Assembly (NCBI GenBank): GCA_050248795.1 | Contig: JBFWRS010000003.1 | Location: 6,500 to 70,499 of the forward strand | Source of the DNA: Burkholderiales bacterium | GTDB taxonomy: Bacteria; Pseudomonadota; Gammaproteobacteria; Burkholderiales; SG8-39 | Direction of reading: 5' to 3' | DNA length: 64,000 nucleotides | Part shown: positions 42,583 through 47,818 of the stretch, piece after piece | Layout of the letters: every line of letters starts with the position of its first letter | How positions within the stretch are numbered: the first letter of the stretch is position 1 | Translations under genes and position numbers: made by a program | The notes under the pieces: generated by a model | The model's input: only the letters and a program-made list of their open reading frames with translations | What the model was told of the DNA's origin: nothing | Databases searched by the model: none

Positions 42583-42596
42583 TTGAGCCAGATCAA
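42583..42596. promoter_or_regulatory. FNR/Anr box (acyl-CoA ligase operon promoter)
   Basis: TTGAGccagATCAA. CAGCAT hexamer 22 bp downstream. 64 bp from the ATG at 42661. Confidence 0.65.
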
Positions 42597-42660
42597 GCCG
42601 CGTTATTTCCTTCCGCGCCAGCATGCGCTCAGGTACAGCCAACATCAGGGAGTGCGTTGC

Positions 42661-44376
42661 ATGGAGCGTCCGGCAGTCATCAGGAAGGCGGCGAGTTCCG
42701 GCGGCGGCGCGGCCGCGAGTGGGACCGACTCGCCCTGGGAGGCGGCGCGGCGCGCACTCGACGGTCTGCCCGGCGGCGGCCTGAACATCGCGCACGAGGC
42801 GGTGGACCGCCATGCGCGCGGTGCGCGCGCGAACCACGTTGCGCTGCGCTGGCTGGCGGCAGCGGGCGGCGTGCGCGACATCACCTACGCCGAGCTCGCG
42901 CAGGCCTCCAACCGCTACGCGAACGTGCTGCGCTCGCTGGGCGTGGCGCGCGGCGATGCGGTGTTCGTTCTGTGCGCGCGCACGCCGGACCTGTACGCTG
43001 CGGTGCTCGGCGGGCTGAAGTGCGGCGCGGCGGTATCGCCGATGTTTTCCGCGTTCGGGCCCGAGCCGCTGAAAACGCGCGTCAACCTCGGCCACGGCAA
43101 GGTGCTGGTCACCACGCAGTCGCTGTACGAGCGGCGCGTGAAGAAGGTCGAGGCCGAGATGCCGACGCTGGCGCACGTGCTTCGCGTGGATTCCGCGGAA
43201 GCGCGCGCCATGCTCGACGCCGCGTCGGACAGCTTCGACATCGTCAACACGGGTCCCGAGGACACGTCATTCCTGCACTTCACCAGCGGCACCACCGGCA
43301 TGCCCAAGGGCGCGGTGCATGTGCACGGCGCGGTGGTTGCGCACTACGCCACCGGCAGGCACGCGCTCGACCTGCACCCGGACGACATCTTCTGGTGCAC
43401 CGCGGACCCGGGCTGGATCACCGGCACCTCGTACGGCATCGTCACGCCGCTGGTGCACGGGGTCACCAGCATCGTCGACGAGGCCGAGTTCGACGCCGAG
43501 CGCTGGTACCGCAACCTGCAGGAGCAGGGCGTGACCGTCTGGTACACGGCGCCGACCGCGATCCGCATGCTGATGAAGGCGGGCGCGGACATCGCGCGCA
43601 AGTACAGCTTTCCGCGCCTGCGCTTCATCGCCAGCGTCGGCGAGCCGCTGAATCCCGAGGCGGTGTGGTGGGGCAAGGACGTGCTCGACATGCCGATCCA
43701 CGACAACTGGTGGCAGACCGAGACCGGCGGCATCATGATCGCCAATACCGCGGCGATGGACATCAAGCCCGGCTCGATGGGCAAGCCGCTGCCGGGGATC
43801 GAGGCGCGCATCGTCAAGCGCGGCGACGAAGGCATCACGCTGGTGGATGAACCCGACACCGAGGGCGAGCTTGCGCTGCGCGCCGGCTGGCCGTCGATGT
43901 TCCGTGCCTACCTGGGCCAGGAAGAGCGCTACCGCAAGTGCTTCGCGGACGGCTGGTACCTGAGCGGCGACCTCGCGCGGCGCGACCGCGACGGCTACTT
44001 CTGGTTCGTCGGCCGCGCCGACGACGTCATCAAGTCCGCCGGGCACCTGATCGGGCCGTTCGAGGTCGAGAGCATCCTGATGGAGCATCCGGCGGTGGCG
44101 GAGGCCGGCGTGATCGGCAAGCCGGACCCGGTGGTGGGCGAGGTGGTGAAGGCATTCGTGTCGCTGAAGGCCGGGTTCGAGCCCGGCGAGGCGCTGCGCC
44201 TGGAGCTGATCGGCCATGCGCGCAAGCGCCTCGGCGCCGCGGTCGCGCCCAAGGAGATCGCGTTCGCGCCGTCGCTGCCGCGCACGCGCAGCGGCAAGAT
44301 CATGCGCCGGCTGCTGAAGGCGCGCGAACTCGGGCTGCCCGAGGGCGACCTGTCCACGCTCGAGGGGCCGGCATGA
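42661..44376 (+). CDS. AMP-forming acyl/acetyl-CoA synthetase family ligase
   Basis: AMP-binding motif [11 protein letters not shown], YGxTE-like WQTETGG and C-terminal [11 protein letters not shown]. About 571 aa. Confidence 0.8.
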
Positions 44377-45380
44377 GCGCAGCGCCGCCGCCTGAGGCCG
44401 CAGGCCCGGTGCCCTGGCCGCGCGAGTTCGCGCTGCAGATCGTCGCCGACATGGTGCGCATCCGGCGCATGGAGGAAACCTGCGCCGAGCGCTATGGCGC
44501 CGGCCGCATCCGCGGCTTCCTGCACCTGTACGTGGGCGAGGAAGCGGTGGCCACCGGCGCGATGCGCGCGCTCGACGCCGCGGACAACGTCGTCGCCACC
44601 TACCGCGAGCACGGCCACGCACTGCTGCGCGGCACCAGCATGCGCTCGATCATGGCCGAGATGTACGGCAAGCAGGAAGGCTGCTCGCGCGGCCGCGGCG
44701 GCTCGATGCACCTGTTCGATGCCAGCGTGCGCTTCTTCGGCGGCAACGCCATCGTCGGCGGCGGGCTGCCGGTGGCGACCGGCCTTGCGCTGGCGGCGAA
44801 GATGCGCGGCGAACCGCGGGTCACCGCCTGCTTCTTTGGCGAGGGTGCAGTCGCCGAGGGCGCGTTCCACGAGGCGCTGAACCTCGCCGCATTGTGGGAA
44901 TTGCCGGTGCTGTTTTGCTGCGAGAACAACCTCTACGCGATGGGTACCGCGCTGTCGCGCTCGCAGCCGCAGACCGACCTGTGCCGCAAGGCCGAGGCCT
45001 GCGGCGTGCACGCCTTCGCCGCCGACGGCATGGACGTGGTCGCCACGCACGAGGCGGCGCAGCGCGGGCGCGCACACTGCGCGGCGGGCAAGGGGCCGTG
45101 CTTCATCGAGTTCCGCACCTACCGCTTCCGCGCGCATTCGATGTTCGACCCCGAGTTGTACCGCGACAAGGCCGAGGTAGAGCGCTGGAAGGAGCGCGGG
45201 CCGATACACAACTACACGGCACGGCTGAAGGCGCAGGGCATGCTCACAGAGGAACAGTTCCTCGAGCTCGAGCGCGCCGCCGACCAGGAAGTCGCTGATG
45301 CGGTCGCCTACGCCGAGGCGGGCACCTGGGAACCGGTCGCGGACCTCGCCCGCGACCTCTACACCCCGGCCGTGACATGA
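44373..45380 (+). CDS. 2-oxoacid (pyruvate/acetoin-type) dehydrogenase E1 alpha subunit
   Basis: ThDP motif [35 protein letters not shown] overlap with the ligase stop. Confidence 0.85.
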
Positions 45381-46348
45381 GCCGGATGAACTACCGTGAG
45401 GCGCTGCGCGCGGGATTGCGCGAGGCGCTGGTGCGCGAGCCGCGCGCATTCCTGATGGGCGAGGACGTCGGCCGCTACGGCGGCACCTACGCGGTGAGCA
45501 AGGGCATGCTGGACGAGTTCGGTCCCGAGCGCGTGCGCGACACGCCGCTGTCCGAACTCGGCTTCACCGGCGCCGGCATAGGCGCGGCGCTGGGCGGGCA
45601 ACTGCCCATCGTCGAGATCATGACGGTGAATTTCAGCCTGCTGGCGCTGGACCAGATCGTCAACACCGCGGCGCTGTACCGCCACATGTCGGGCGGGCAG
45701 TTCTCGGTGCCGCTGGTGATCCGCACCTCCAGCGGCGCAGGCCGCCAGCTCGCGGCGCAGCACTCGCACAGCTTCGAGGCCTGGTACGCGCACATACCGG
45801 GGATACGCGTGGTAGCTGCCGCGACGGTGGAGGATGCGCGCGGCATGCTGTGGCAGGCGCTCGCCGATCCGGACCCGGTGGTGGTGTTCGAGTACCCGGC
45901 GCTGTTCGCGATCGAGGACGAGTGCCCCGACAAGGTGGATGTCGATATCCGCAGCGCGAAGGTGCGCCGTGCCGGCACGCAGGTGAGCCTCATCACCTAC
46001 GGCGCCTGCCTGCCCAAGGTGCTCGAGGCGGCGCAGGCGCTGGCCGCCGAGGGCATCGACGCCGAAGTGCTGGACCTGCGCGTGCTGCGTCCGCTGGACG
46101 ATGCGACGCTGCTTGCGTCGGTGCGCAAGACGCGGCGCGCGGTGGTCATCGACGAATGCTGGCACACCGGCAGCCTGGCTGCGGAAGTGATGGCGCGCAT
46201 CATGGAAGGCGCCTTCTACGACCTCGACGCGCCGGTGGCGCGCGTGTGCAGCGTGGAAGTGCCGATACCCTACGCAAAGCACCTGGAGGAGGCAGCGTTG
46301 CCGCAGGTGCCGCGCATCGTCGAGGCTGCGCGGGGGCTGTTCAAATGA
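45377..46348 (+). CDS. 2-oxoacid dehydrogenase E1 beta subunit
   Basis: Transketolase-like pyrimidine-binding and C-terminal domains ([16 protein letters not shown]). ATGA overlap. Confidence 0.85.
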
Positions 46349-47544
46349 TCGAGTTCCACCTGCCTTCGCTCGGCGCCGACATGGAGGAGGGCAAGCTCCT
46401 GGAATGGAAGGTCGCGCCGGGGCAGAGCGTGAAGCGCGGCGACGTGGTCGCGGTCATCGATACCTCCAAGGCGGCGGTCGAAGTCGAGATCTGGGAGTCG
46501 GGCACGGTGCATGAACTCCTTGCGCAGCCGGGCGAGACCTACCCGGTGGGCGCGGTGCTGGCGCGCCTGCTTGCGCCGGGCGAGCAGCCCGGTGCCGCAC
46601 CGCCAGCCGCGGTAGCCGCCGCCACTCCCGCGGTGCCGACCGGCGCGCCCGCGCCGACCGCGGCGCCTGCCACGGCAGCGGCGCCGGGCGCTGCGCCCAC
46701 ATTGCGCCCGCGCGCGTCGCCCTCGGCGCGCAAGCGCGCGGCCGAATTGGATGTCGCGCTGGAAGGCGTAACCGGTACCGGGCCGGGAGGGGCGATCACG
46801 CTGCAGGACATCGAGAACGCCGCCGCGCGCGCGGCAGCGAAACCTGCCGCCCCGGCGAAGAGCGCTGCGCTGCAGGACCGGCAGGCGGAGATGCAGCGCA
46901 CCATCGCCGCGGCGATGAGCCGCTCCAAGCGCGAGATCCCGCATTACTACCTGAGCGACACGGTGCCGCTGGGCGTGGCAGCGGACTGGCTGGCGCGCGA
47001 GAACGCCGCGCGTCCGGTCACCGAGCGCGTGCTGATGGCTGCGCTGTACCTGAAGGCGGTGGCGAGCGCCTGCGTGCGCCACCCGGACATGAACGGCTAC
47101 TACGTCGACGGGCGTTTCCAGCCTGGCGCGGCGGTTCACCTCGGCGTGGCGATTTCGCTGCGCAGCGGCGGGCTGGTCGCGCCGGCGCTGCTCGATGCGC
47201 AGGCGAAGAGCGTGACCGAGCTGATGCGCGAGCTCGCCGACCTGGTGAAGCGCACGCGCACCGGGAGCCTGCGAGCAAGCGAGCTGTCCAGCGCCACCAT
47301 CACGGTGACGAACCTGGGCGACGAGGGCGTGGAGGCGGTGTTCGGCGTGATCCATCCGCCGCAGGTAGCGCTGGTCGGCTTCGGCAGGGCGGCCGAGCGC
47401 GCGTGGGGCGAGGACGGCAAGCTGAGCGTGATGCGCACGGTGACCGCGACGCTCGCCGCCGACCACCGCGTCAGCAACGGCATGCGCGGCGCGCAGTTCC
47501 TCGCCGAGGTGAAGCGCCTGCTGCAATCGCCCGAGACACTATGA
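46345..47544 (+). CDS. dihydrolipoamide acyltransferase E2 (lipoyl, E3-binding and catalytic domains)
   Basis: Lipoyl motif [10 protein letters not shown], Ala/Pro linker, PSBD ([13 protein letters not shown]...GTGPGGAIT) and catalytic DHRVSNG. Confidence 0.85.
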
Positions 47545-47557
47545 CGAGAGGAATGCG

Positions 47558-47818
47558 ATGAACGAAGCGGAAGTGCGGGCAGGGGTGATCGCGGTGATCA
47601 GGTCGATCGCGCCCGAGGTCGAGGAGGGCGAGATCGACCCGGCGCGTTTGCTGCGCGACCAGATCGACCTCGACTCGATGGACTGGCTGAACGTGATCGT
47701 CGCATTCCACGAGCGCTTCGGCATCGACATCCCCGAGGCCGACTACGCCAGGCTGACCACGCTGGATGCGGTGGTCGGCTACATCGCCGCGAAGAAAGCG
47801 GGAAAGCCCGCCGGCTAG
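47558..47818 (+). CDS. acyl carrier protein / phosphopantetheine-binding protein
   Basis: 86 aa four-helix pattern with DQIDLDSMDWLNV (DS attachment motif). GAGAGGAA RBS. Confidence 0.7.
   Translation: MNEAEVRAGVIAVIRSIAPEVEEGEIDPARLLRDQIDLDSMDWLNVIVAFHERFGIDIPEADYARLTTLDAVVGYIAAKKAGKPAG

Follow-up and report, generated by a model that had tools for sequence, protein, structure and literature searches.

We analysed a 64,000-nt stretch of the genome of a Burkholderiales bacterium of lineage SG8-39 (assembly GCA_050248795.1, contig JBFWRS010000003.1, positions 6,500–70,499 of the forward strand; hereafter, the window) with respect to an operon of five genes that stand in a row on its plus strand. 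Translation and profile searches identify the products as an AcsA-type ligase, the E1 alpha and E1 beta subunits of a pyruvate dehydrogenase (PDH), a dihydrolipoamide acyltransferase (E2) and an acyl carrier protein (ACP) of 86 amino acids (Table 1). Read directly, the first four genes are joined by ATGA start/stop overlaps at positions 44373–44376, 45377–45380 and 46345–46348, and the E2 stop codon at 47544 is separated from the ACP start codon at 47558 by a 13-nt spacer that holds the Shine-Dalgarno sequence GAGAGGAA. This gene set, the three overlaps, the spacer and the upstream FNR-type box had been proposed in a preliminary description of the window and are borne out by direct reading and profile searches. 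The same description let the operon begin at 42583, which delimits the right region but marks the FNR-type box, the ligase reading frame starting at 42661. Rfam and tRNA scans found nothing within the operon.

Table 1 Features of the operon and its flanks in the window
Feature	Position	Strand	Evidence and remarks
FNR/Anr-type box TTGAGCCAGATCAA	42583..42596		65 nt before the ligase ATG, centre ~71 nt upstream; read directly
AcsA-type AMP-forming acetate ligase, 571 aa	42661..44376	+	Pfam AMP-binding and AMP-binding_C; NF003313
PDH-type E1 alpha (thiamine diphosphate (ThDP) subunit), 335 aa	44373..45380	+	Pfam E1_dh, E = 8.9e-84; TIGR03182
E1 beta, 323 aa	45377..46348	+	Pfam Transket_pyr and Transketolase_C; NF006667
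E2 dihydrolipoamide acyltransferase, 399 aa	46345..47544	+	Pfam Biotin_lipoyl, E3_binding and 2-oxoacid_dh
Stand-alone ACP, 86 aa, with DLDSMDWLN (Ser40) and IPEADY	47558..47818	+	Pfam PP-binding PF00550, E = 7.7e-08
Pat-type GNAT, 175 aa, probable accessory partner	47815..48342	-	NF058543 match; convergent with the ACP gene, overlaps its stop codon
Second FNR-type box TTGACCGGCGTCAA	48428..48441		Divergent region between the GNAT gene and a Lon-like protease operon

The operon is conserved and mobile across many bacterial lineages. We find the same gene order in about 40 loci from Beta-, Alpha- and Gammaproteobacteria, Desulfobulbia, Bacteriovoracaceae and Actinomycetota, many of them on plasmids and in hypoxia or dormancy islands. 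The five genes are collinear in Thauera, Burkholderiales, Burkholderia, Cupriavidus, Ralstonia, Paraburkholderia, many Rhodobacteraceae, Azospirillum, Methylocystis, Sinorhizobium, Photobacterium, Desulfotalea, Bacteriovoracaceae, Rhodococcus and Streptomyces. A scan with the E2, limited to one genome per species, returned 21 loci, and tblastn with the window proteins found ligase, E1 alpha, E1 beta, E2 and ACP collinear wherever the contig extends (Thauera, Burkholderiales, Rhodobacteraceae and a metagenome-assembled genome of Bacteriovoracaceae). Searches of plasmid DNA revealed runs of acsA, pdhA and pdhB in Burkholderia, Cupriavidus, Rhodococcus, Azospirillum, Leisingera, Sinorhizobium and Streptomyces; the annotated regions of Burkholderia savannae and Rhodococcus sp. 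DK176 hold the five genes in the same order, ACP included. An independent search of plasmids with the ACP alone yielded 37 records, and the E2 adjoins in nearly every one (the annotated matches mostly run into the E2 gene next to them, and retrieval of the region confirmed further records). Even the weakest ACP matches checked, from Streptomyces (31% identity), Photobacterium (33%) and a Desulfotalea psychrophila plasmid (34%), carry the full set, as does Streptomyces fungicidicus, and the picture is the same for two metagenomic ACP homologues encoded on long contigs.

The bait in retrieving the loci was E2 or ACP, so the linkage described here is a property of this E2 clade and ACP subfamily rather than of E2s generally: the ACP follows the E2 in 26 of 26 testable loci, with a start/stop overlap in 20 and a gap of at most 20 nt in 24. 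The carrier protein, which the preliminary description had counted as a member of the operon, is thus conserved with E1 and E2 in relatives. Overlaps also join ligase and E1 alpha (23 of 24 loci) and E1 beta and E2 (21 of 28). Foreign genes are sometimes found between E1 alpha and E1 beta or between E1 beta and E2, never between E2 and ACP. At locus L010, ppsA takes the place of the ligase at the 5′ junction and E1 alpha, E1 beta, E2 and ACP are intact; this contig ends just upstream, and a ligase may lie farther away. Decayed copies of the operon occur as well, at L029 on Rhodococcus plasmid pDK2 (8502–9282) and at L024 (Actinopolymorpha). In the former, an intact ACP paralogue is preceded by remnants of E1 beta and of the E2 lipoyl domain, within an island of Hsp20 and response-regulator genes. 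All-against-all clustering of flanking open reading frames (ORFs), which is noisy in high-GC DNA owing to antisense ORFs, gave only variable neighbours beyond the five genes.

The carrier protein is a typical acidic one whose attachment serine is invariant, and it is only distantly related to AcpM and to the ACPs of mitochondria or of fatty-acid synthases. It scores below the cut-off of every curated NCBIfam ACP model of fatty-acid synthesis (best NF002147, 45 bits versus 84), and its neighbours are the E2 and an acetyltransferase of the GNAT family, not fab genes. Of the marks of the AcpP proteins of fatty-acid synthesis, it has the PP-binding fold and the serine, but neither the equivalog score nor the fab-gene context. 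A profile search with this ACP in 1.84 billion representatives returned 847 clusters at E ≤ 1e-10, and among the best 150 of these clusters at least six fuse the ACP to a C-terminal GNAT domain. With one such fusion as query, at least 120 clusters of 258–296 amino acids with the same architecture were retrieved.

These fusions of ACP with a Pat-type GNAT, typically of about 265 amino acids (P0151, P0223, P0224 and P0249; loci L032–L041), occur in Rhodocyclales, Burkholderiales and others; they are annotated merely as GNAT acetyltransferases and are mostly stand-alone genes. Because their ACP domains are 43–51% identical to the window ACP, compared with 36–44% for the ACPs of the Rhodobacteraceae operons, we place them in the same ACP subfamily. 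Over its whole length, the GNAT encoded next to the ACP in the window shares 47% identity with the GNAT half of fusion P0249. It is matched by the GNAT part of the mycobacterial Pat model NF058543 ('acetyltransferase Pat') with E = 1.2e-24 (86.8 versus a cut-off of 460), and the closest PDB relatives are all Pat enzymes (9isq, 4ava, 4nxy and 4oll). The protein has a single domain, without the regulatory domains for cNMP binding, of ACT type or resembling NDP-forming acyl-coenzyme A (acyl-CoA) synthetases, and its relatives bear an N-terminal ACP domain. A classical full-length Pat-type acetyltransferase of 911 amino acids, in which domains resembling NDP-forming acyl-CoA synthetases precede a C-terminal GNAT, is encoded 15 kb upstream (24909–27644, minus strand), so this genome has both a large Pat and a small GNAT beside the ACP.

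Homologous GNATs adjoin the operon in L009 and, in Rhodococcus, in L002. At L035, an ACP–GNAT fusion is followed, with an overlap, by a ligase of the clade found in the operon (53% identity, Leu at position 526 of E. coli Acs), with no E1 or E2; at L036, a fusion lies in an island of genes for universal stress protein (USP), CBS and BON proteins. Two generalizations were rejected: that the GNAT is a universal sixth gene of the operon (it lies within 10 kb in three independent loci only), and that a ligase always stands beside the fusions (true in one of five informative contexts). The GNAT–ACP loading didomain of curacin CurA, in which the GNAT of a polyketide synthase (PKS) loading module reportedly decarboxylates malonyl to leave an acetyl thioester on the phosphopantetheine arm, is by its description alike in setting a GNAT fold beside an ACP, although here the GNAT is Pat-type and no PKS is present. 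Full-text literature searches returned no description of this operon or of the ACP–GNAT Pat architecture.

The ligase looks like a bona fide AcsA, which weakens it as a clue to acyl-ACP loading, the use suggested in the preliminary description. It scores 890.6 bits with the acetate–CoA ligase equivalog NF003313 (cut-off 729), and its closest solved relative, the 572-aa acetyl-CoA synthetase 9g79 (E = 1.5e-167), aligns to the very C-terminus. Mapped on E. coli Acs, the acetate pocket (Val310, Thr311, Val386 and Trp414) is kept, with Ile for Val310 in the window, and Trp350/351 corresponds to the acetate gate; with this pocket conserved, acetate is likely the acid substrate. Arg584 and Lys609 of E. 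coli Acs are kept too, the latter, a catalytic and acetylatable lysine, as Lys546 in SGKIMRR, and every clade member has the motifs WW(Q)(T/S)ETG and SGK(I/V)(M/L)RR. Three conserved arginines serve the CoA step in Acs, namely Arg191, Arg526 and Arg584, of which Arg526 is highly conserved and stabilises the thioester-forming conformation and Arg584 contacts the 3′-phosphate of CoA (PMC10455477). Arg526 is lost in the ACP-linked ligases: its position holds Leu in 27 of 28 (SGHL[IV]GP; Leu463 in the window) and Met in Desulfotalea, whereas E. coli Acs, the AcsA 9g79 and a stand-alone AcsA from Brevibacillus have Arg. Retention of Arg584 speaks for continued CoA binding; the column of Arg191, which aligns poorly, holds E, R or K. 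From Rhodococcus to Desulfotalea, the ACP-linked ligases form a tight group of 58–70% identity, and stand-alone AcsA proteins of Firmicutes are at most 50.5% identical.

Both E1 subunits pass PDH-type models (E1 alpha, TIGR03182, 435.5 versus 393.85; E1 beta, NF006667, 389.7 versus 321). The E2 has a lipoyl domain with Lys42, a peripheral-subunit-binding domain (PSBD, residues 122–157) and a catalytic domain with Thr322, His374 and Asn378; the alignment shows the lipoyl lysine, the PSBD and both catalytic residues, His and Thr, to be kept across its clade. Its closest PDB relatives are E2 proteins of PDH (E2p) of the mitochondrial type, yet it falls far below the E2p equivalog cut-offs (TIGR01349, 207.1 versus 445; NF008814, 173 versus 722), and the lipoyl motif of the clade is TSKA or TQKG rather than DKA. 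Membership in the acetoin dehydrogenases (AcoABCL) was rejected, since the acetoin E2 model NF011457 matches the lipoyl region only (72 versus a cut-off of 307) and E1 alpha is PDH-type. The motif DHRVSNG singled out in the preliminary description is present, with its His374 and Asn378, but the Asn is private to this genome: relatives have DHR[VAI][ST]DG, with DHRVSTG (Thr) in L005 and DHRATDA in Desulfotalea. To judge from the title of Hendle (1995), as cited in PMC8421416, the E2p of Azotobacter vinelandii has a natural Asn614, four residues after the catalytic His610. As relatives have Asp and, on that title, the Azotobacter enzyme has Asn, we do not take the residue as a functional clue to another acceptor.

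The operon has no gene for lipoamide dehydrogenase (E3). That none lies in the window had been stated before and is borne out: tblastn with E. coli Lpd found no match there, and Pfam scans of size-matched ORFs gave other families. The absence is conserved, as in 621 kb comprising the window and about 40 loci the same query found one flavoprotein of 30% identity, in L023; with this single weak match, the module appears to travel without E3, even on conjugative plasmids. On the large conjugative plasmid of Desulfotalea psychrophila, a strictly anaerobic sulfate reducer, a lipoate-protein ligase gene follows the operon ACP (L028, 9336–10346), which argues that the lipoyl domain is in use. L026 (7220–7783), and likewise L027, has an inserted HemG-like flavodoxin_5 gene that separates E1 alpha from E1 beta, and its product is a possible alternative oxidant of the dihydrolipoyl group in place of E3. 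A 240-aa protein without family match is encoded between E1 beta and E2 in L025 (8091–8813). A single ORF of about 660–676 amino acids encodes a fusion of E1 alpha with E1 beta in L007, L008, L010–L018, L020, L021 and L023 (Rhodobacteraceae and other Alphaproteobacteria) and in L031 (Photobacterium); this fusion was seen in ORF lists for L008 (8013–10004) and L031 (4728–6758) and deduced for the others from the lack of an in-frame stop.

Low-oxygen control of the operon through an FNR/Anr-type regulator, proposed in the preliminary description, is well supported by the distribution of predicted binding sites. The window contains eight exact TTGA-N6-TCAA sites where 0.19 are expected, a number that none of 100 shuffles reached. 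They lie at 28124, 31279, 39055, 42583, 48428, 53553, 56169 and 57689, and each precedes a gene; the genes concerned are ccoN and a gene for a fixI-type ATPase, a unit of cytochrome c and a beta-CASP RNase, the operon, the GNAT/Lon divergent region, a Cpn60/AAA_33 divergent region, glycerol genes and an Hsp20-like gene. We estimate the chance of an exact box at about 0.005 per 350 nt; such boxes also precede the ligase gene in L001, L006, L007, L009, L011, L022 and L026, and boxes with one mismatch do so in most other proteobacterial loci, at a fixed distance in most Rhodobacteraceae. The actinomycetotal copies stand among universal stress protein genes, in Rhodococcus plasmid pDK1 also with a GAF sensor kinase and a response regulator nearby. 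Near these copies, a search for DosR boxes (GGGACN4GTCCC) found only one-mismatch sites at other promoters (L002, 14096; L029, 8374); with no convincing box in front of the actinobacterial operon, we make no claim of DosR control.

The eight sites span an FNR/Anr-type island of about 30 kb (28124–57702) that resembles the Burkholderia lxa locus. In Burkholderia cenocepacia, this locus is a dense set of genes behind TGA-N6-TCA (Anr/FNR-like) motifs that includes USP, Hsp20, polyhydroxyalkanoate synthesis, RNase, cytochrome c and protease genes (PMC3721108). The window island shares such motifs and gene content with lxa and with DosR-type dormancy islands, but the published gene table of lxa lists acetate kinase and phosphotransacetylase (ackA/pta) and not an operon of acsA, pdh and ACP genes (PMC3721108). 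Around the operon, recurrent but variable neighbours encode FtsH, a Lon-like protease, PpsA, PhaC, SDR, Hsp20, an AAA_33 ATPase, CMAS and an FNT (formate/nitrite transporter) channel. Directly 5′ of the FNR-type box, the window has an FNT-family channel gene and a gene for a 317-aa protein (together 40757–42574). FNT homologues of 65–68% identity are also found near the operon in L009 and L031. The 317-aa protein (41621–42574) is named 'acetyltransferase' by NCBI and has no Pfam, NCBIfam or PDB relative except a weak DHHA1 match. A P-loop protein of the AAA_33 family of about 510 amino acids recurs near the operon across phyla (window 53600–55141; L002, L009, L011, L025, L026 and L044). The beta-CASP metallo-beta-lactamase RNase at 39449–40753 matches best, among NCBIfam models, the Cas14 type VII model (392 versus a cut-off of 800); L014 and L016 have homologues with 41–42% identity near the operon, and a metal-dependent RNase is likewise part of the lxa locus. 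At the end of the window (62001–64000), G+C falls to 0.567, compared with about 0.70 elsewhere.

Set against known systems, the operon is a widespread and mobile variant on the theme of PDH and Acs that seems uncharacterised, and the role of its strictly conserved carrier protein appears to be undescribed. It resembles the PDH complexes with heterotetrameric E1 (PdhA, PdhB, E2p and Lpd) of Gram-positive bacteria, alphaproteobacteria and mitochondria in its E1 models and in the lipoyl, PSBD and catalytic domains of E2. It differs from them in lacking E3 in the operon or within 10 kb (window and about 40 loci), in the ACP and AcsA that are always attached, in the E2 score and lipoyl motif, and in its FNR-type boxes. 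An AcsA-type ligase with the SGK lysine and an adjacent Pat-type GNAT are also reminiscent of Acs regulation by lysine acetylation, as in Bacillus subtilis AcsA/AcuA or by mycobacterial or enterobacterial Pat; here, however, Leu replaces Arg526, and the GNAT lacks cNMP-binding or NDP-forming-synthetase-like domains and has ACP-fused relatives. A third precedent is QncN/QncL/QncM and SclQ1-4, in which E1-like and E2-like proteins and an ACP make glycolicacyl-S-ACP, the acyl group going to a carrier protein with no dedicated E3 (PMC6335953). The likeness is one of architecture: both have a ThDP enzyme, a lipoyl E2-type acyltransferase and a dedicated ACP, but the Qnc and Scl proteins are encoded in clusters for nonribosomal peptide synthetases (NRPS) or other natural products and use ketose phosphates, whereas the operon combines a PDH-type E1 with AcsA in hypoxia islands, with no assembly line nearby.

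We tentatively favour a reading in which pyruvate, through E1, lipoyl-E2 and a distal E3, and acetate, through the ligase, feed acetyl groups to the ACP, and acetyl-ACP serves Pat-type GNATs. The operon would then be a horizontally mobile, self-contained and FNR/Anr-activated module for low oxygen or dormancy that draws on two sources for activated acetyl units. E1 alpha and E1 beta would decarboxylate pyruvate and reductively acetylate the lipoyl-lysine of E2, whose dihydrolipoyl group would be re-oxidised by a lipoamide dehydrogenase encoded elsewhere, the E2 having retained its PSBD; the ligase would adenylate acetate. The ACP would be an obligatory fifth component, with a phosphopantetheine thiol that takes the acetyl group from S-acetyl-dihydrolipoyl-E2, from the acetyl-AMP of the ligase or from both, alongside CoA or instead of it. 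Acetyl-ACP may then act as a tethered analogue of acetyl-CoA for the Pat-type GNAT, which is adjacent here and fused to the ACP subfamily in many other bacteria. A plausible target of this GNAT is the conserved Lys546 of the ligase, whereby flux through the module would be coupled to lysine acetylation. Acetyl is the most economical cargo to propose, since the ligase, the PDH-type E2 and the Pat-type GNAT all handle acetyl groups and carriers with a conserved serine bear thioesters. The ACP looks like a hub rather than the appendage of one enzyme, as it is linked separately to E2, by translational coupling and at L010, and to ligase and GNAT, by the fusions and at L035. The exchange of Arg526 for Leu and the ACP–GNAT fusions point to real chemistry at the ACP, not to the donor.

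Several observations weigh against this proposal. The ligase passes the AcsA equivalog model and keeps Arg584, the partner of a CoA 3′-phosphate that is absent from the ACP arm. The arginine equivalent to Arg526 in the A8 motif is also found in adenylation domains that load carrier proteins, so the exchange for Leu is by itself no mark of ACP use. No E2p feature has obviously been lost from the catalytic domain of E2. Of about 30 independent loci, just 3 have a Pat-type GNAT within 10 kb of the operon, and all four ACP–GNAT fusions found on long contigs stand alone, without adjacent ligase or E2; in these, loading of the ACP domain must fall to the GNAT itself or to some distant enzyme.

An alternative that we consider somewhat doubtful but serious is that the operon encodes an ordinary accessory PDH and Acs. 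E2 and ligase would both use free CoA, with the housekeeping Lpd completing the complex, and acetyl-CoA would be made at low oxygen, for example for polyhydroxybutyrate synthesis or in acetate scavenging; the ACP would receive no acetyl and would be a regulatory or docking partner of Pat-type acetyltransferases, or belong to an unrelated pathway. The AcsA and PDH E1 scores above curated cut-offs are as such a system would have them, and so are the acetate pocket, Arg584 and the acetylatable lysine of the ligase and the PSBD and standard catalytic His and Thr of E2, the Asn in its motif being harmless by the precedent given in the Hendle title. PhaC and SDR genes near several loci and the mostly stand-alone ACP–GNAT fusions are likewise in keeping with it. 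Left unexplained are the translational coupling of ACP and E2 in essentially every locus across phyla, an ACP subfamily that occurs almost only there or fused to GNAT, and the uniform loss of Arg526 in the ligase clade.

A bolder form of the favoured reading, which we regard as unlikely, is an acetyl relay independent of CoA. E2 and the ligase lacking Arg526 would load the dedicated ACP with acetyl derived from pyruvate and acetate, and acetyl-ACP would be the tethered donor for Pat-type acetyltransferases and possibly the substrate of an ATP-yielding reversal of the ligase.

Such a reversal is central to a further explanation that we consider improbable, in which the ACP is a private carrier for energy conservation. 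E1 and E2 would make acetyl-ACP from pyruvate, and the ligase, run backwards, would convert acetyl-ACP, AMP and PPi to acetate, ATP and holo-ACP, so that ATP is gained in anoxia without touching the CoA pool and acetate leaves by the FNT channel. FNR control would suit obligate or facultative aerobes that need to survive anoxia (PMC3721108). The FNT channel gene near the operon in the window, L009 and L031, the adjacent gene in several loci for PpsA, another AMP-linked enzyme, and the separate links of ligase and ACP to other components speak in its favour. Reversal of an AMP-forming ligase, of which Syntrophus is reportedly a known example for Acs, however needs pyrophosphate, of which no source is evident in the loci, and re-oxidation of dihydrolipoamide would still yield NADH under hypoxia.

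We give little credence to a biosynthetic C2-unit cassette of the QncN/QncL/QncM type, which would supply a secondary metabolite or lipid with an acyl-S-ACP building block and has the same architecture, with ThDP E1-like, lipoyl/acyltransferase E2-like and ACP components and no E3 (PMC6335953). NRPS, PKS or condensation genes are found neither in the window nor recurrently near the loci, the E1 is PDH-type and not transketolase-like, and the setting in stress and hypoxia islands and the AcsA partner would go unexplained. Least probable of all is a supply of octanoyl or lipoyl groups by the ACP for lipoylation of the operon's own E2, whose lipoyl domain needs modification and for which the LipB pathway, which uses octanoyl-ACP, is a precedent, given that the ligase pocket keeps the acetate Trp gate, the Desulfotalea plasmid has an ACP-independent lipoate-protein ligase instead, no lipB or lipA is among the recurrent neighbours and the fusion of the ACP to Pat-type GNATs does not fit.

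An open problem is how Burkholderia, Rhodococcus, Streptomyces and other obligate aerobes survive without oxygen, and the hypoxia islands of lxa and DosR type are full of genes without an assigned role. The operon described here is among the most conserved and mobile blocks of these islands, and it is annotated gene by gene as routine acsA, pdhA, pdhB, E2 and ACP. It is tractable in cultivable hosts, among them Paraburkholderia phymatum STM815, Cupriavidus, Rhodococcus sp. DK17, Leisingera and Sinorhizobium fredii. Even if the ACP accepts no acetyl groups, the operon cleanly marks FNR-controlled pyruvate and acetate metabolism. If the ACP does accept them, the use of carrier proteins by 2-oxoacid dehydrogenases would reach beyond rare natural-product cassettes into widespread stress physiology, and a new input domain would be added to the Pat-type protein acetyltransferases. 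If the CoA-independent relay were true, hypoxic or dormant bacteria of many phyla would own a private acetyl currency apart from acetyl-CoA, and the ACP–Pat fusions would be a new class of protein acetyltransferase.

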